A DNA stretch of 64,000 nt from an uncultured delta proteobacterium. GTDB taxonomy: Bacteria > Desulfobacterota > BSN033 > UBA1163. Positions 22,552 through 59,044 of the stretch are shown here, piece after piece. Within the stretch, counting starts at the first letter, position 1; every line of letters starts with the position of its first letter. The notes beneath the pieces are model-generated. The model did no database searches, was not told the origin of the DNA, and saw only the letters and a list, made by a program, of their open reading frames with translations. Position numbers and translations under genes: made by a program. Location: NCBI GenBank assembly GCA_963708295.1, contig CAVPSJ010000012.1:160001-224000 (forward strand), written 5' to 3'.

Positions 22552-23202
22552 TTATTGATACCGCCCACTTTCTGAAATTCTACGGTTTTTTGCGGCTTCA
22601 ATATCCTTAATGTGGTTAATGTGTTGAAAATGGGTTTCCAGCCCTGGGGCCAATCGTTTTTCAGCAATCGATTCTATGATTTCATTAACTTCATTGTCTG
22701 CCAGCACAGTTCGGACCTGTGAACGGATGTACTGAATGTACCCGCGCGGCCCCGTTACGTTCTTTGGCATCTCCGTTTTGAAAGTGCTGTCCCCAATGGA
22801 AACAACAACCGATCGCATCTTATCATCCGGTATTCCCAGAATTTCAGACAATGTCTTCGTATGTTTGTAGTTCTGCCGAAGCGGGTTCTGGAATTTCTCG
22901 GAATGGCGAAATATCTTCTGCGTCCAATAGGCGTCTCCTTCCTTGCCGAATATCCAGCCTCTCAGGTTTTTCGTCTCGACTACAAAAACACCAAAGCGCG
23001 AAACGATGACATGGTCGATTTGTGTCGTTCCCCCGTCTGCCGGAATAGTAACATTCTTAATAAGGTGGTAGACGTTTTTGTCCAAGGAAAACTTCGTTAG
23101 GAGATTAACCTGAAGTTCACCTATCCAGCCTTTGAACCAAGGGTTTTTGAGGATAATAGCAAGAACAGCTATGATCCCGGCCAATATATATATTTTAGTC
23201 AT
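22552..23202 (-). CDS. NERD domain nuclease-related protein with N-terminal TM
   Basis: KGWIGE, TTQIDHVIVSRFGVFVVETKN, FQNPLRQNYKH. Confidence 0.9.
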   Translation of the reverse strand: MTKIYILAGIIAVLAIILKNPWFKGWIGELQVNLLTKFSLDKNVYHLIKNVTIPADGGTTQIDHVIVSRFGVFVVETKNLRGWIFGKEGDAYWTQKIFRHSEKFQNPLRQNYKHTKTLSEILGIPDDKMRSVVVSIGDSTFKTEMPKNVTGPRGYIQYIRSQVRTVLADNEVNEIIESIAEKRLAPGLETHFQHINHIKDIEAAKNRRISESGRYQ

Positions 23203-23243
23203 CTCTTGACCCCTTAAGGGTAGCTCAAACAAACCTTCATCTT

Positions 23244-23275
23244 GGGTGTCAGGTCTACACTATTCACTACCCGCC
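23244..23275. repeat. Type-B element end repeat GGTRTCAGGTCTACACKATTCACT (other copies 5191, 23446, 24844)
   Basis: Near-identical ~24-mers at four loci; the 24844 copy is more degenerate. Confidence 0.75.
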
Positions 23276-23495
23276 TGCATCAATCGTGTCAGTGTTAGTG
23301 TCTGTGTCAGCATAGAACATCTAAACACCGTGTGAGTGTCCGTGGTAAATAGATAATCCTGTCGAACCAAAAATATTATTGCCCCCTTTTTTACCCTGTT
23401 TTAGAGGTAATACCCTTTCTTCGCCATGGAGCGCCAGCCGCAACTGGGTATCAGGTCTACACGATTCACTACCGCCCACCTTTCAATTGAGTCTT

Positions 23496-24659
23496 TTATG
23501 AAAGGGCAGATAACAGCTTTTCTATCGACAATGCCTTTATGCCGGGGCGAAGCGCCGAGATGGACTCCTTTCCCTTCGAAGGCCGATAGATGAGAAATCG
23601 ATCGACCTTATAATTGGATACCACCTTTGACAGACGACTGAGAGACTCCGCTGTCTCAGGCCAAACGGTCCGGGAGGCTTTGGCCTCAAGGAGGATAAGT
23701 TTATGGTCCCCCCCGGGAACCAAAAAATCCACCTCAAGGCCTTGCTGATCCCTAAAATAATAGAGCTCTCTTGCTCTTCCCGAATTCATTTGTCGTTTGA
23801 TGATTTCCGACGCAACGAATCCTTCAAAAATAGCTCCCAGAAACGTAGAGCCGTTCAACATCTTTTCAGACTCGATTCCCAGTAAGTGGCAAACAAGACC
23901 TGAATCGAAAAAATAGAGTTTTGGCGATTTGATAAGCCGTTTCCCAAAATTCTCGTAGAAGGGCGGTACAAGAATGATTTGAGAGGTAATTTCAAGAATG
24001 TTCAACCATTCGGAAATCGTTGGTACCGTCACCCCGAGAGGAGCAGCTAAATCCGTGCGATTCAGGATTTGTCCACAGCGGCTCGCTAAGAGCGATAGAA
24101 AACGGCGAAATGTTGCCAGATCCCGTATGGAGCTGATGGCCCGAACATCTCTCTCCAAATAGGTCTGGATATATGACCGAAACCACGTCTGAGAGACCGA
24201 AGGATGAGCGAGGACTTCTGGGAATCCTCCATTCAAGAGAGATACCTTGGGGGTCTCCAGAAGAGAGAGTGTCAACAGATGAAACACAGCGGCTCGACCT
24301 GCCATCGACTCGGTGGCCCCTTTCATGAGGGGAGACTCCTGGGACCCTGTGAGCAACCATTGGCCCTTCTTATTTGGGAATCGGTCAATCTGAGTTCTTA
24401 CATAGCTAAGGATTTCTGGAACATTCTGAATTTCATCAAGAATGGCAGGGGGGCGAATTTCCTCAATAAAGGAATGGGGATCTGCACGGAGGCGTGCGAT
24501 GATGTCTGGATCTTCCAGCAAATAATACTGGGCTTTCGGGAAGAGCTTTCCGAGAAGGGTAGTTTTCCCTGCTCGTCGGGGACCCGTGAGAATGAGCCCC
24601 GAAAAATGTTTCGAAGCTAAAAGGAGTTCTGATTCAATCTTTCGGGGGATGTATTTCAT
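23496..24659 (-). CDS. AAA+ ATPase with DUF4143 (AAA_14-type)
   Basis: GPRRAGKTT, ILDEIQNVP, LTGSQ, TYLERDV, KRLIKSPKLYFFDSGL, EVDF. Confidence 0.92.
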   Translation of the reverse strand: MKYIPRKIESELLLASKHFSGLILTGPRRAGKTTLLGKLFPKAQYYLLEDPDIIARLRADPHSFIEEIRPPAILDEIQNVPEILSYVRTQIDRFPNKKGQWLLTGSQESPLMKGATESMAGRAAVFHLLTLSLLETPKVSLLNGGFPEVLAHPSVSQTWFRSYIQTYLERDVRAISSIRDLATFRRFLSLLASRCGQILNRTDLAAPLGVTVPTISEWLNILEITSQIILVPPFYENFGKRLIKSPKLYFFDSGLVCHLLGIESEKMLNGSTFLGAIFEGFVASEIIKRQMNSGRARELYYFRDQQGLEVDFLVPGGDHKLILLEAKASRTVWPETAESLSRLSKVVSNYKVDRFLIYRPSKGKESISALRPGIKALSIEKLLSALS

Positions 24660-24729
24660 CTTGAGTATTCTAAACCGTTACTTTAAATAACTCAAATAAA
24701 AAGATGATTTCTTTTTCACGGATCTTACA

Positions 24730-24842
24730 CTCCTTGAGCTCCTTTTTCTTTGAAAGGGCAACCCGTTCATAGAGCATCGCGTTAATCTGTCGATCAAGCT
24801 GCCTGACTGACCAGCCAGCTCTTCGGGTTTCTTCCTCATGCC
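24730..24842 (-). pseudogene. Internal fragment of a second YhcG/DUF1016 gene
   Basis: Manual translation EEETRRAGWSVRQLDRQINAMLYERVALSKKK aligns with WSTRTLEKKISGMLFERTALSKK of the neighbouring gene. Confidence 0.6.
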
Positions 24843-24865
24843 AGCGTATAGGTCTACACTCTACA

Positions 24866-25057
24866 CTACCCGCCTTCCCCTTTCAATTGTTCCGGAGTCC
24901 TTTCTTCCAGCCAAAGCTTACAGACATTTTTCCAACCAATACGCCGCCATCTTTTGAATACTGCCTTCAAATCCCCCAAATCTTTCGCTTCCAGAAGATC
25001 TTTTTGAGCCGCCTTCAAATCTTCAAGAGATGCAATCGCTGGCATGGGCACCTCCAA
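24866..25057 (-). CDS. Small hypothetical protein
   Basis: About 60 aa; GGAGG RBS before ATG at ~25045. Confidence 0.65.
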   Translation of the reverse strand: MEVPMPAIASLEDLKAAQKDLLEAKDLGDLKAVFKRWRRIGWKNVCKLWLEERTPEQLKGEGG

Positions 25058-25133
25058 CTAACGTAAAAGAAAAACCGCATAGGGCATAGAGCATAGGGTA
25101 AAATTACTGCCGTAAAGCGTCAGGCGTTAGGAG

Positions 25134-26186
25134 TCAGGCATTTCCTGGTTCTTCGCTTTTTTCTTCCAAACGAACCCGCGCCAGAAGTATCGCCTCGTGA
25201 AGCTTCCTCTGTAAAAGCTTCCGAGGGGGAAGCTCTGTCAAATAAGCCGCCACACGAATCCCACTCTTGTCTAGCTGAAGTAACTTGATCTGTTCCTCGG
25301 ATTTGTCGGCACACAAGATTAATCCGATTGGAGAATCCTCTCCGCGTTGTTGCTCATACTTTTCCAGCCACCTAAGATAAAGCTCCATCTGGCCTTTATC
25401 CGCAGCCTGAAATTTTCCTAACTTCAAATCAATGGCTACCAAACGCCGCAGCTTCCGATGGTAAAAGAGCAGGTCGAGGTAATAATCCTCATCGTCTACC
25501 GCCATCCTCTTCTGTCTGGCTACAAAGCTAAAGCCCGCCCCGAGTTCTAAGATGAAGGATTCCAATTCTCTCAGGATGGCTGTCTCAAGGTCCTTCTCGC
25601 TGTAGGTATCCTTCAACCCAAGGAAATCGAGAAAATAGGGATCACGAAAAACAAGATCAGGTGTGAGTTTATCCTCTTCCCGTAATTTAATGAGCTCTTG
25701 TTTGGCCAACTCCGCCGGTTTCTTAGAAAGGGCGGTTCGCTCAAAGAGCATGCCGGAGATTTTCTTTTCGAGAGTCCGCGTGCTCCACCGTTCGATGCGG
25801 CACATTTCCGCATAGAAGTCCCTCTTCAGCGGATCATCCAAAGGGATGATGTGCCGAAAATGGGTCCAGCCCAATTGTGTACTCAGTGCGTTCACAATCT
25901 TCTCGTCCGGGAATACCTCCGCAAACCGTAACATGTGCCACAGGTTTCGAGAGGAAAAACTCAAACCAAATTCAGAGACCAATTGCGTCGACAGTGTCGA
26001 CACAATTTTCTCCCCATAGTCAGCCCGCTCTTCCTTCAGGATGTCTTTGCGGATGCGTTGGCCCACGCGCCAGTAGAGCATTACCAAGGCAGAATTCACC
26101 TGCCGGGCTACATCCTGTCGTGCCTCAATGATCAGGGACCTTAAATCCTGGAACAGGCTGTCTGATATTTGAAGGAGTTTTGTCAT
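25134..26186 (-). CDS. YhcG/DUF1016 PD-(D/E)XK nuclease-domain protein
   Basis: LYWRVG, RDPYFLDFLGL, LELGAGFSFVARQ, DLLFYHRKLR, GQMELYL, PIGLILC. Confidence 0.93.
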   Translation of the reverse strand: MTKLLQISDSLFQDLRSLIIEARQDVARQVNSALVMLYWRVGQRIRKDILKEERADYGEKIVSTLSTQLVSEFGLSFSSRNLWHMLRFAEVFPDEKIVNALSTQLGWTHFRHIIPLDDPLKRDFYAEMCRIERWSTRTLEKKISGMLFERTALSKKPAELAKQELIKLREEDKLTPDLVFRDPYFLDFLGLKDTYSEKDLETAILRELESFILELGAGFSFVARQKRMAVDDEDYYLDLLFYHRKLRRLVAIDLKLGKFQAADKGQMELYLRWLEKYEQQRGEDSPIGLILCADKSEEQIKLLQLDKSGIRVAAYLTELPPRKLLQRKLHEAILLARVRLEEKSEEPGNA

Positions 26187-26377: not shown

Positions 26378-26635
26378 CCTCTCAGAAAAACAACAGGTCG
26401 ACAGTTTGGATTACTTTTAGATCTTATTGGGCGGGAAGTCAATAATAAAATTGCGGAATGCGCGCGGAATCTCTCTCTTTGTCGAGGAACAACCAATGGA
26501 ACAAATTGGCAATCCTAAAAAGATAATTTTCACAATTAGTTTTTGGGATTGACAAACCTTGTGCTCGTGGTACATTTGAACCAAATCTTCTGGCTTATAG
26601 AGCGGGGAAAGAGAAGGGCTCGAAAGGGGGGCATG

Positions 26636-27763
26636 ATGGCGACGGACATTTATGAAAGATTGGCTGAACATCTCGATAATCTGCCCGGAGGTTTCCCACG
26701 GACTGAAAGTGGCGTGGAAATGCGAATTCTACGGCGGCTCTTTACCCCTGAAGACGCCAAGCTTGCGGTCCACCTGACACTGATCCCTGAGGAACCAAGA
26801 GTGGTTGCTCGGCGGGCCAGGATCCCGGTCGGGGAGGCTTCCCAACGATTGGAGGGGATGGTCAAGGCCGGCCTGATCATCGGGGTCTATCCGAAGAACA
26901 AATCACCTCTGTACATGGCCGAGCAGTTCCTCGTCGGCTTCTGGGAAAGCCAGGTGAATCGACTGAGTCGAGAGCTGATCGAAGAGTTCGAAGAGTACCT
27001 GCCGTTTTTCACCGAACAAAACATCGGGCCGGGAGTCCCCCAGTTGAGAACGATCCCCGTGGGGAAGAGCATCAGCACGCAAACCGAGGTCATGCTCTAT
27101 GAGCGGGCAGAGGAGCTGGTGCGGACCCACAAGACATTTGCCGTGGCCAATTGTATTTGCCGGCAGGAGATGCGCATCATGGGCAAAGGCTGTAAGAAGC
27201 CCGAAGAGAGCTGCCTGAGTATGGGAATGGCCGCCAAACTCGTGGTGCGCACGGGCAGGGGCAGGCCCATCGACAGGGAGGAGGCCCTGGCGATCCTTCG
27301 GCGTGCCGAGGAAGTCGGGCTCGTCCTGCAACCCTCCAACTCTAAGAAGGCCCCTTTTATCTGAACGTGCTGCGGCTGCTGCTGTGGCGTGCTCCGCAGC
27401 ATTAAACGCTATCCGAATCCGGCCAGTCTCGTGTCTACCCCTTTTGTGGCGAGCCTCGCGACCGATACGTGCAAAGGCTGTGGAGCCTGTGTCAAGCGCT
27501 GCCAGATGGAAGCCCTTTCTGTAGACCATAAGAAAGCGGCCCTGGATTCGAATCGATGCATCGGTTGCGGTTTGTGTGTCAGCACGTGCCCTACCGGCTC
27601 GCTTTCTCTCATACGCAAGCCCAGAGCGAAACAGCCCTATGTTCCCGGGGATATCGTGGAAACCCATATCAAGCTCGGGAAGGCTCGAGGCAAGCTGGGT
27701 GTCGGCAAGAGGATAGGGATGAAGGTCAGGTCGAAGCTGGACCGGTTGCTAGCCTCTAAATAG
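26636..27763 (+). CDS. 4Fe-4S dicluster protein with N-terminal HTH-like region; in-frame TGA at 27362 (candidate selenocysteine)
   Basis: The two ORFs are in the same frame; read-through gives FI[TGA]TCCGCCCGVLR then CKGCGACVKRC and CIGCGLCVSTCP; 375 aa. Confidence 0.8.
27365..27402 (+). promoter_or_regulatory. Putative bacterial SECIS hairpin
   Basis: TGCTGCGG (27368-75) pairs with CCGCAGCA (27394-401); possible upper stem with UGUG apical loop about 18 nt after the UGA. Confidence 0.45.
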
Positions 27764-33698: not shown

Positions 33699-36510
33699 TC
33701 ACCCCTGGATCGCCTCGATGCACCTGTGGCAGATGGTTCCATGCTCCTGATGAGTCCCGACGGTGACTTCATAGTTCCAGCATCTCTCACACTTCTTCCC
33801 CTCTGCCGGAGATACTTCCACCCGCACCTCTTTTTCATCTTTGGCGAGATGAAGGATGACGGAGGAAACAATAAAGACGAACTTCAGGTCCTTCTCGTAA
33901 CATTCAAGAAAAGGATAGATCTTCTCGGGAACATAGAGATGAACCTGCGCATCCAAGGACAGTCCGATGATCTTCTCTTTACGTGCTTCTTCCAGGACTT
34001 TGGTCACCAGGGTTCGGATCTCCCACAGCCTCTCCCAGCGTTCGTTCAGGGCGTCGTCCAGATACTCGCTTTTCACTTCAGGGAACAGCGCCAGATGAAC
34101 ACTTTCTGACTTTCCGCGCTCTTCCGGAAGGAGTTGCCAGACCTCCTCTGACGTGAAAGAGAGAATAGGAGCCATGAGGCACGTCAACGCTTTTAAAATC
34201 TCGTAGAGCGCGGTCTGAGCCGACTTCCGGGCTTGAGAACCGGACGAAGAGGTATAAAGCCGGTCCTTCAAAATATCAAAATAAAGGGCGCTCATCTCCG
34301 CCGCGCAGAAATTCTGAACGGCGTGGTAGACCGTGTGGAATTCGAAACGCTCATAAGCCTCTCGGACCCTGCCCGTGAGCTTCTGGAGCTGGTGGAGCGC
34401 CCATCGGTCCAACTCATGGAGTTCGCCATAGGGAACCCGGTCTTTTTCGGGATGGAAGTCGTACAGATTTCCTAAAAGAAACCGAAAGGTGTTTCGGATT
34501 CGGAAGTAGCTGTCGGCTAAACGTTTCAGGATCTCGTTGGAGATCTTGATGTCATCTCTGTAATCCTCTGCCGCGACCCAGAGCCTCAATACATCGGCCC
34601 CCAATCGATCGATGATTTCGTCGGGAGCAACCACATTTCCCGCCGACTTGGACATCTTCTTGCCCTCTCCATCCACGACAAATCCGTGGGTCAGGACGGT
34701 ACGATAAGGGGCACACCCTCTTGTCCCGACGGAAGTCAAAAGGGAACTGTGGAACCATCCCCGGTGCTGATCGCTTCCTTCCAGGTAGAGACTCGCCGGA
34801 AACTCAAGCTCGCTCCGTTTCTCCAGGACGGCTGCATAGGAGACCCCCGAGTCAAACCAGACATCCAGAATATCCGTCTCCTTCGTAAATTCCTTTCCGC
34901 CGCACTGAGGGCAGCGGGTCCCCTTGGGCAGCAGGTGATCCGTCCCTTCTTCAAACCAGATGTCCGCTCCCTTCTCCTCAAAAAGACGGGCGACATGTTC
35001 GATGGTTTCCTGGTTGACCAGAGGTTGTTTGCAGCCCGCACAGTAAAAGACGGTGATCGGAATCCCCCAGGCCCTCTGTCTGGAGACGCACCAATCCGGC
35101 CGGTTTTCAACCATCCCGTAGATTCGATCCTTTCCCCAGGGAGGGATCCAGCTCACTTCATTGATGGCCTTCAAGGCATCCCGTCTCAACCCCATTCTTT
35201 TCCATCGAGATGAACCATTGCTCCGTCGCCCGAAAGATGATCGGGTCGTTGGTACGCCAGCAATGCGGATAAGAGTGGACCATCATCTCCTCTTTGAGGA
35301 GCGCTCCCACCTCCGCCAGCTTTTTGTTGACGGCACCGTTGGCGTCAAAAACAAACTGCCCGGCGAAGAAAGGAACATCCTGGGTAAACCGGCCATCATC
35401 ATCGACCGGACTGTAGATCTCCAAGCCATATTGCACCCCGCTTTCATAATCCTCTTGACCGTGGCCGGGCGCCGTGTGCACACACCCCGTCCCCGCATCC
35501 AAGGTCACATAGGGGGCGAGGATGATCAGCGAATCCCGGTCGAGGAAGGGATGCCGGGCTTTGAGTCCTTCCAGTTTTTTTCCTGCAAATTTCTCCACCA
35601 CTTCATATTTCTTGATTCCGAATTTCCTCATGTCCTCTTCTAAAAGGCCCTCTGCCAGGATATAGATCTCTCCGCCCACATCCACGGCTACGTAAGTAAA
35701 ATCGGGATGCAGCGCAATCGCCAGGTTGGCCGGGATCGTCCAGGGCGTGGTCGTCCAGATGATGACGTAAACAGGCTTTCCCCCGAGGCTTGGGAACAAA
35801 TCCCCGATGTCCCCCCCACCCTTTCCCTCCCCCTCAAGGGGGGAGGGGCGGGAGGGGGTGGAGATCATTTTGAATTTCACATAGATGGAGGGGGAACGAT
35901 GGTCCTCGTATTTTACCTCCGCCTCGGCCAATGCGGTCTTGCAGGTAGGGCACCAGTGGACCGGCTTCTTTCCCTTGTAAACGGAGCCGTTTAGAAGAAA
36001 CTTTCCGAACTCTCTGACGATCGTCGCCTGGTATTCAAAATTCATGGTCAAATAGGGATTTTCCCATTCGCCAAAGATTCCCAGGCGTTTAAACTCCTCC
36101 CTCTGAATCCCCACAAATCTGGCCGCGTACTCCCGGCACCGCTTCCGAATGTCAACGACGGACAGTTCTTTTTTCTTCGAACCGAGACTCTTTTCCACCT
36201 CGTGTTCAACAGGCAAGCCATGACAGTCCCATCCTGGAACATAATGGCTATCCAACCCTGCCATAGACTTCGATTTCAAGATGAAGTCTTTCAGGATTTT
36301 ATTCAAGGCCGTGCCGATGTGAATGTTTCCGTTGGCGTAGGGAGGACCGTCGTGAAGGATATATTTCGGCCTTCCTTTCACCTGCTGGCTCAATCGGGGG
36401 TAAGTCCCCTTCGCCTCCCATGCTTTCAGCATATCCGGCTCCCTCTTAGCCAAATTGGCCTTCATGGGAAAGTCGGTCTTCGGAAGATTCAATGTCTTAC
36501 GGTAATCCAT
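33699..36510 (-). CDS. ileS: Isoleucyl-tRNA synthetase (apparent frameshift near 35190)
   Basis: [54 protein letters not shown]. Confidence 0.96.
35812..35859. repeat. 48-bp palindromic repeat inserted in frame in ileS
   Basis: Encodes [16 protein letters not shown]; DNA matches the intergenic repeat family at 33536-33652. Confidence 0.7.
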
Positions 36511-58777: not shown

Positions 58778-58877
58778 CTCCAATAAAAAAGCCGCTACCC
58801 GAAGTTCTATCTTCGGATAGCGGCCCGACTATCCAGTGCTTTAACCTCCAGAAATAACAAAACGTATTTCTGGACCC
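58778..58877 (-). ncRNA. Riboswitch-like leader, copy 2, with intrinsic terminator (resembles Na+/Li+ DUF1646/nhaA-I class)
   Basis: GGGUCCAGAAAUA-loop-UAUUUCUGGAGGUUAAAGCACUGGAUAGUCGGGCCGC then terminator GCCGCUAUCCGAAG/CUUCGGGUAGCGGC-UUUUUU. Confidence 0.65.
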
Positions 58878-58945: not shown

Positions 58946-59044
58946 CTCCAATAAAAAAGCCGCTACCCGAAGTTTTATCTTCGGATAGCGGCCCGACTAT
59001 CCAGCCTCTTAACCTCCAGAAATATTTGATATACTTCTGGACCC
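58946..59044 (-). ncRNA. Riboswitch-like leader, copy 1, with intrinsic terminator
   Basis: Near-identical to 58778-58877; differences are confined to loops/linker and one A-U to G-U change. Confidence 0.65.

Follow-up and report, generated by a model that had tools for sequence, protein, structure and literature searches.

The described systems closest to the gene analysed here are iron–sulfur selenoproteins, in which selenocysteine (Sec, U) is encoded by an in-frame UGA. First, in the RnfB-like Fe-S selenoprotein NF005503/PRK07118 (PMC13188914, PMC9312934), Sec replaces a Cys of a Cys-rich iron–sulfur motif in a protein with a ferredoxin domain, as it would here. Second, the HdrA selenoprotein (CxxU) is a multi-cluster iron–sulfur redox protein of anaerobes, with Sec/Cys pairs and a C-terminal ferredoxin domain similar to that of the present protein. 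Third, the ferredoxin:thioredoxin-reductase-like (FTR-like) selenoproteins (NF041072, CxU) carry CxC-type motifs beside a [4Fe-4S] cluster, with Sec at the redox-active position. Finally, PMC1794560 includes a GlpC/HdrD-type Fe-S oxidoreductase-like protein (UGH), an iron–sulfur selenoprotein of deltaproteobacteria. For the RNA signal, the selenocysteine insertion sequence (SECIS), the bacterial model has a loop of 3–9 nt with a G in the first two loop positions, a distance of 16–37 nt from the UGA and a minimum free energy (MFE) of −7.5 or lower (PMC13188914). We compared with these systems a gene on the forward strand of a 64,000-nucleotide stretch of DNA (the window; contig CAVPSJ010000012.1 of assembly GCA_963708295.1), the source of which is described as an uncultured Syntrophales-type bacterium. 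The frame at 26636–27763 has one internal TGA only, at codon 243, in the context FI-U-TCCGCCCGVLR. Judged from comparative sequence evidence, the gene very probably encodes a 375-residue selenoprotein with Sec at this codon.

The in-frame TGA and the frame beyond it

The open reading frame (ORF) listing cuts the gene into 26543..27364 and 27389..27763, the frame being identical, and translation of 26636–27763 agrees with an initial annotation that had described two ORFs in one frame parted by TGA codon 243. In a six-frame search of 60 relatives, orthologs with one TGA were found in three genomes (G013, 87% identity; G012, 78%; G005, 75%) and stop-free orthologs in five (G004, G009 and G010 at 79–80%; G006 and G016); the orthologs align across residues 1–375. 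A 32-sequence alignment places the TGA at codon 243 in all four TGA genomes, with Cys in 28 of the 28 others. In a wider alignment (A1; 120 sequences, down to ~30% identity), C243 is among 11 invariant columns, and the 119 other rows all have Cys. The in-frame UGA thus stands opposite a Cys of the homologs and forms a Sec/Cys pair with it. The initial annotation had named an ICxCCxCCC motif and placed the TGA at its conserved Cys, which is right in substance; it had also suggested looking for homologs with TGA or Cys at the same column, and both exist.

A pattern search found the TGA form in four of 68 genomes of the class, all within the genus, namely the genome that holds the window (G000) and three of 14 others. 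A scan for TTYATHTGAACN... added 28 metagenome contigs that carry the TGA form, so that the possibility raised by the initial annotation of a TGA unique to this assembly does not hold: three further species of the genus share the codon, as do the metagenomes. With a broad DNA pattern on genome contigs, three real homologs appear among the 120 matches listed, all three with the stop, and the listing is otherwise dominated by CTG-type repeats. The Cys-form pattern gave only three matches in 401 genomes of the phylum, because that sample dilutes the family. Separately, internal TAA or TGA flags in distant paralogs were followed up as candidates for recoding in five loci (L218, L219, L051, L044 and L050) and rejected there; the alignments of these loci are free of internal stops, the flags having arisen because the match ran past the natural stop.

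An assembly or sequencing error, the true codon being TGC or TGT, is extremely improbable. In its favour, the contig has probable indel lesions (the isoleucyl-tRNA synthetase gene, IleRS, is split at ~35158–35195), and an FdhA gene is also split. Against it stand the TGA in the other genomes and metagenome contigs and the public sequencing data, in which the site is spanned by Logan contigs of four runs, three of DNA and one of an RNA library. These contigs show neighbouring variants (27367 G>C and 27385 T>C) and, in the best 40 of 118 variant rows, neither TGC nor TGT nor any other variant at 27362–64, a point on which the initial annotation had made its reading depend. As to the lesions themselves, IleRS is seemingly present as two overlapping ORFs on the reverse strand (33699–35195 and 35158–36510), and its 498-residue piece covers no more of the class I synthetase domain than the C-terminal half. 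The remark in the initial annotation that the other lesions of the contig are indels agrees with this split, which is consistent with an assembly indel or frameshift.

The sequence downstream of the TGA behaves as coding sequence. The frame is open for 132 codons past the TGA in all four genome copies and for 132–140 codons in 25 of the 28 metagenome copies; two others are open to the end of their contig, and the last (L202) stops. The ratio of nonsynonymous to synonymous substitution rates (dN/dS; Nei–Gojobori, 28 pairs of eight TGA forms) is 0.08–0.24 downstream of the TGA and 0.04–0.24 upstream, and the TGA is retained among sequences with dS up to ~2. The frame is therefore conserved and under purifying selection past the UGA, and the ratios on both sides, as sequence-based estimates, exclude a pseudogene or a dispensable tail. 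These data bear directly on the view that the TGA is a true stop, leaving a pseudogene or a 242-residue product and a C-terminal piece that starts on its own, at GTG 27389. The ORF listing does give two ORFs, the L202 copy is broken further on, and gene callers appear to cut the gene, since the protein database searched holds no full-length match above 81% identity. However, besides the open frame and the selection downstream, a split would break a Cys motif that is a single unit in 120 of 120 rows of A1, and the codon has persisted over large synonymous distances. We regard a true stop as very unlikely.

The genome has a complete selenocysteine system. In G000 (4.95 Mb, 91% complete), we found a single SelB (353 bits, cut-off 242), SelA (625 bits) and one tRNA-Sec (81 bits), 5 kb from selA. 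Two SelD paralogs (G000:C17:66608-67531 and G000:C4:371872-372792) each have one TGA at the canonical site and an 8-bp SECIS hairpin, and further in-frame TGA codons occur in two FdhA genes, within R-[LI]-U-H-S (G000 C4:537394-538890 and C15:57964-58560), and in an FlpD/MvhD gene (G000:C17:223985-224356). SelA, SelB, SelD and tRNA-Sec are thus all present, and the absence of Sec machinery, against which the initial annotation had cautioned, does not apply. Among five genomes of the genus, tRNA-Sec was found in four, with no match in G005 (83% completeness). The best FdhA match (G000:C4:537394-538890 and 536931-537425, reverse strand) is in pieces, with a second TGA at the first codon of the match; this break points to an assembly frameshift or indel, not to a second Sec.

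The same inventory bears on what is inserted at the UGA. UGA-243 might be recoded as Cys by a tRNA-Sec-like tRNA-Cys(UCA), selC*, together with a SelB paralog, SelB*. According to PMC5389517, selC* occurs in a composite genome of Smithella as well as in related deltaproteobacteria, and Cys recoding by selC*/SelB* is proposed for some Syntrophobacterales and Desulfobacterales and for that Smithella genome. The hairpin and the Cys-aligned UGA are equally compatible with such recoding. However, ARAGORN lists 41 tRNAs in the whole genome, with anticodon tca in the tRNA-SeC only and one ordinary tRNA-Cys (gca), and the Rfam tRNA-Sec model has one match above threshold, the next seven being tRNAs for Ser, Leu or Tyr. 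G000 and the five genus genomes have a single SelB each, although at 91% completeness of G000 the absence of such a tRNA or SelB paralog is unproven. We consider recoding as Cys very unlikely, and Sec remains the preferred reading of the codon. ARAGORN also called a 74-nt 'tRNA-Stop' at G000:C15:66807-66880 on the forward strand, with its anticodon, tta (which would read UAA), at the unusual position 31; the call could be spurious, or else mark a suppressor or a tRNA of a mobile element.

A conserved hairpin and the recurrence of TGA forms

A hairpin lies directly 3′ of the UGA, inside the coding sequence, as in bacterial SECIS elements of the Escherichia coli fdhF type. The predicted structure at 27380–27401 (Table 1) has 8 bp, including one G-U pair, and a free energy of −11.5 kcal/mol; its stem begins 15 nt and its loop 23 nt after the UGA. 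With a 6-nt loop and a G at loop position 2 followed by a U, it falls within the bacterial model, and it differs from the fdhF type in that no bulged U was identified in it. The SelD and FdhA hairpins of the same genome are of similar build (6–8 bp, 18–21 nt spacing), with loops of GGA, GAUC and GGUCU compared with CGUGCU here. RNAfold on the local sequence of the window returns another arrangement, a 9-bp stem 27367–75/27394–402 with an inner stem and a UGUG loop (MFE −22.8 kcal/mol). The initial annotation had proposed the corresponding pairing of 27368–75 with 27394–401; this stem is present in the window, but the conserved partner of the 3′ arm is 27380–87. Rfam includes some bacterial SECIS families. 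A scan of the whole window at Rfam gathering thresholds gave nothing at the locus and two nhaA-I riboswitches only, which lie in tandem on the reverse strand at 58815–58877 and 58983–59044 (53.3 and 50.2 bits against a gathering score of 37).

The conserved hairpin is distinguished by its synonymous codons. Over 33 TGA forms, the sequence TGC TGC GGC GTG CTC CGC AG is nearly invariant, and the Cys and Gly codons that precede it vary between C and T. Among 25 distinct TGA-form DNAs, synonymous diversity over the seven codons +6 to +12 averages 0.034, the lowest of 245 windows along the gene; the median is 0.36, and the next lowest non-overlapping value is 0.109. This low diversity is not an ascertainment effect, since the pattern of the metagenome search accepted either C or T (Y) in the Cys codons and ended at the first two bases of codon +8. 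The fold CUGCGG-CGUGCU-CCGCAG, extended to 7–8 bp, occurs in 33 of 33 TGA forms at −10.9 to −14.0 kcal/mol. In ten Cys-form orthologs with DNA, the same region folds at −0.9 to −8.1 kcal/mol and its codons vary; the 3′-arm codons CTC CGC AGY are fixed in the TGA forms only. Such a pattern indicates that the hairpin at 27380–27401 is under selection. The initial annotation had cautioned that the hairpin might simply reflect repeated TGC codons; this is borne out for the 5′ arm and loop, and it does not extend to the 3′ arm.

A further explanation is leaky read-through independent of a SECIS, by a near-cognate tRNA (Trp or Cys), in which the hairpin slows the ribosome or is a by-product of the motif. 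The hairpin is indeed partly dictated by the CCG codons, and the Cys form L023 already reaches −8.1 kcal/mol. Nevertheless, the stretch that contains the fixed 3′ arm is the least synonymously variable of the gene, the geometry is that of the genome's bona fide SECIS hairpins, and the Sec system is complete. We give leaky read-through about as small a chance as a true stop. In the preferred reading as a selenoprotein gene, the hairpin with its CGUGCU loop would recruit SelB carrying Sec-tRNA(Sec) during translation, so that Sec would be inserted and the ribosome would not terminate. Sec would then take the place of the first, universally conserved Cys of C-x-C-C-x-C-C-C. The machinery, the conservation of the TGA and the Cys-aligned column all support the proposal of the initial annotation of Sec in a Cys-rich metal-binding motif.

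The TGA forms do not group together in the family tree. In a maximum-likelihood tree that includes 24 different TGA sequences besides 119 Cys forms and was built after masking column 243, they fall into four clades (15, 7, 1 and 1 rows) that require four state changes; none of 500 label shuffles is as good. A tree that unites all TGA forms in one clade fails an approximately unbiased (AU) test (lnL difference 294, p-AU 0.0006). Cys is the likely ancestral state, because all more distant homologs have Cys, and we infer that the four TGA origins are independent. The distance between the two states is short: within the relevant 40 nt, the Cys sister L023 and the TGA form L026 differ by three changes (TGC to TGA, CTT to CTC and GGT to AGT). 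The motif codons UGC UGC GGC GUG CU would themselves provide the 5′ arm and the loop, and about three substitutions of this kind would convert a Cys form into a UGA-plus-SECIS form, a route that would explain the TGA forms in four separate clades. As a tentative extension, which we consider possible and somewhat doubtful, the motif codons may act as a built-in proto-SECIS that has allowed at least four Cys-to-Sec switches of ~3 substitutions each within this single orthologous group, with selenium at or ligating an iron–sulfur centre in a fold not seen before. One Cys-form ortholog from another family of the phylum (L212, G453:C135) has TGCTGCGGCGTGCTCCGGAGT, one base off the TGA-form hairpin; this represents either a proto-SECIS or what a reversion from Sec to Cys has left behind.

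Several observations weigh against reading the gene as a selenoprotein gene or against parts of that reading. The fold predicted from the window's own sequence is no better than its shuffles (z = −0.98, with 37 of 200 shuffles equal to it), and such a single-sequence fold carries no weight alone. The 5′ arm and loop of the conserved hairpin are set by the protein motif's own codons, and the fold of L023 shows how far a Cys form can go by itself. Among the TGA forms there is no fully compensatory base-pair change, only two one-sided wobbles (U-G in L021 and G-U in L203), so that the structural support rests on synonymous conservation. In the metagenome copy L202, the frame closes 27 codons after the TGA, with 86 open codons before it; the copy may be in decay, or the early closure may stem from an error in sequencing. 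The variant evidence at 27362–64 comes from assembled contigs, which lend weak support at the level of reads, and the best-matching sequencing runs share only 0.24 of sampled words. The four-clade pattern could stem from short recombination or gene-conversion tracts rather than from independent mutation. A comparison of the window locus with ten homolog loci found no partner gene common to them and hence no functional clue. Finally, we infer the insertion of selenium at residue 243 from the features described above.

Protein architecture and genomic setting

The features of the locus are collected in Table 1. The model of the full protein calculated with AF2 has a confidence (pLDDT) of 95.5 and comprises three parts. 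The N-terminal part (residues 15–130) aligns in VIA-align to winged helices of the MarR/ArsR/TFE type, weakly (Z 5–6.3), and the Pfam family HTH_20 matches with 13.5 bits, under its cut-off of 27. The C-terminal part belongs to the Fer4 clan, with two CxxCxxCxxxC motifs and three Pfam families above their cut-offs (PF00037, 39 bits against 21.1; PF14697, 37.9 against 35; PF12838, 36.3 against 27), which confirms the designation as a 4Fe-4S protein in the initial annotation. The PDB profile matches (polyferredoxins, HdrA and RnfB) are restricted to this ferredoxin part.

Table 1 Features of the selenoprotein locus (window coordinates)
Feature	Position	Strand	Details
Predicted selenoprotein gene	26636..27763	+	375 codons, then TAG at 27761-63
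UGA codon 243, predicted to be read as selenocysteine	27362..27364	+	Opens the U-x-C-C-x-C-C-C motif
Conserved hairpin, putative SECIS	27380..27401	+	5′ arm 27380-87 (UGCUGUGG), loop 27388-93 (CGUGCU), 3′ arm 27394-401 (CCGCAGCA)
Alternative 5′ arm	27367..27375	+	Partner for 27394-402 (in the initial annotation, 27368-75 with 27394-401); perfect complement here, codons vary C/T in relatives
Winged-helix-like N-terminal domain (~residues 15-130)	26678..27025	+	AF2 model, weak VIA-align matches
Central Cys-rich domain (residues 132-272)	27029..27451	+	Alignments A1 and A2
C-terminal 2x[4Fe-4S] ferredoxin domain (residues 272-332)	27449..27631	+	CxxCxxCxxxC and CxxCxxCxxxCP; Pfam
Sigma-70-like promoter candidate	26549..26576	+	TTGACA, 16 nt, TG-TACATT; ~57 nt before the start codon

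Between these two parts lies the central domain with the UGA-encoded residue. Its conserved Cys positions are 173, 175, 186, 193, 243 (Sec here), 245, 246, 249 and 250. The domain has no Pfam match, and a comparison of 28 central-domain sequences at E ≤ 5 gave scattered chance matches only. Modelled alone (pLDDT 72), it reaches a best PDB Z of 2.8 and has no Foldseek match at E ≤ 0.001, which does not by itself prove a new fold. With the full model, Foldseek and VIA-align matched the winged-helix and ferredoxin parts and nothing else. NCBIfam gave ferredoxin-domain matches only, all far under cut-off (best 25 of 76), and the ESM Atlas, searched with the Cys homolog P0002, gave 'hypothetical protein' clusters below 0.9 only.

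The family is large. At E ≤ 1e-30, 660 cluster representatives came out of an exhaustive search, and a word-index search gave 5992 matches among 8000 scored candidates, most of which bear the label '4Fe-4S binding protein' or a makeshift name. The family is widespread among anaerobes that live by syntrophy or sulfate reduction. The protein is probably a soluble multi-cluster redox protein, whose ferredoxin domain most likely passes electrons to a central metal or redox site that includes residue 243. Sec would accordingly lie at or beside the central metal/redox centre, where it would either ligate a cluster or act as a redox-active chalcogen next to one.

The selenoprotein gene is solitary, and its flanking genes are on the opposite strand. 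A further in-frame ATG at 26633 lies just upstream of the start at 26636, and the GGGGGG run at 26626–31 may be the ribosome-binding site. The promoter candidate has 10 of 12 consensus matches and an extended −10 element, a consensus match alone that gives no evidence of function. Directly upstream of the gene, 22552–26186 on the reverse strand carries three genes for a NERD nuclease, an AAA_14/DUF4143 ATPase and a YhcG/DUF1016 PDDEXK nuclease, a set typical of mobile or defence islands.

Comparison with described selenoproteins

The initial annotation had suggested a little-known family, and we found no matching family among the 119 prokaryotic selenoprotein families and subfamilies of the 2026 catalogue (PMC13188914, Table 1). 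The accessible parts of the 2006 list (PMC1794560) and of Haft's 2022 preprint do not contain it either. Literature searches found no description of the family as a selenoprotein; supplementary tables and RefSeq annotations, which lay outside their scope, might hold one. The gene would thus add a selenoprotein family that standard annotation splits in two. The presence of Sec would single out residue 243 of UxCCxCCC as a chemically critical site and give a starting point for experiments. If Sec does ligate or neighbour an iron–sulfur cluster, the protein would join a small number of natural examples of selenium in a centre of this type. The hairpin would be a natural example of a SECIS arising inside a coding sequence, half of it dictated by the motif and half tuned in the TGA forms only, which would explain the recurrent Cys-to-Sec switches.

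The closest described systems differ from the present protein as follows. First, the NF005503 model gives 40 bits against a cut-off of 252 and covers residues 278–327 only. The representative accession of NF005503 in the 2022 review is presumably a Syntrophus record. The motif in NF005503 is UxxC, compared with UxCCxCCC here, where a winged-helix-like domain and a new Cys-rich domain are joined to the ferredoxin domain. Second, unlike HdrA, the protein has no flavin or thioredoxin-reductase-like domain; the likeness to HdrA is within residues 267–335, and Sec lies in another domain. Third, the mechanism of the NF041072 type is a possible analogue for the pairs U243-x-C245 and C173-x-C175; no FTR family occurs among the 16 Pfam families at E ≤ 0.1, and there is no FTR fold match for the central domain (best Z 2.8 in a model of pLDDT 72). 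Finally, the GlpC/HdrD-type selenoproteins differ in motif and architecture. The CCG domain is Pfam PF02754, and no CCG domain is found among all 16 Pfam families at that threshold. In summary, by these sequence-based measures the gene is a genuine selenoprotein gene; the family is new, and the kind of system to which it belongs is well known.

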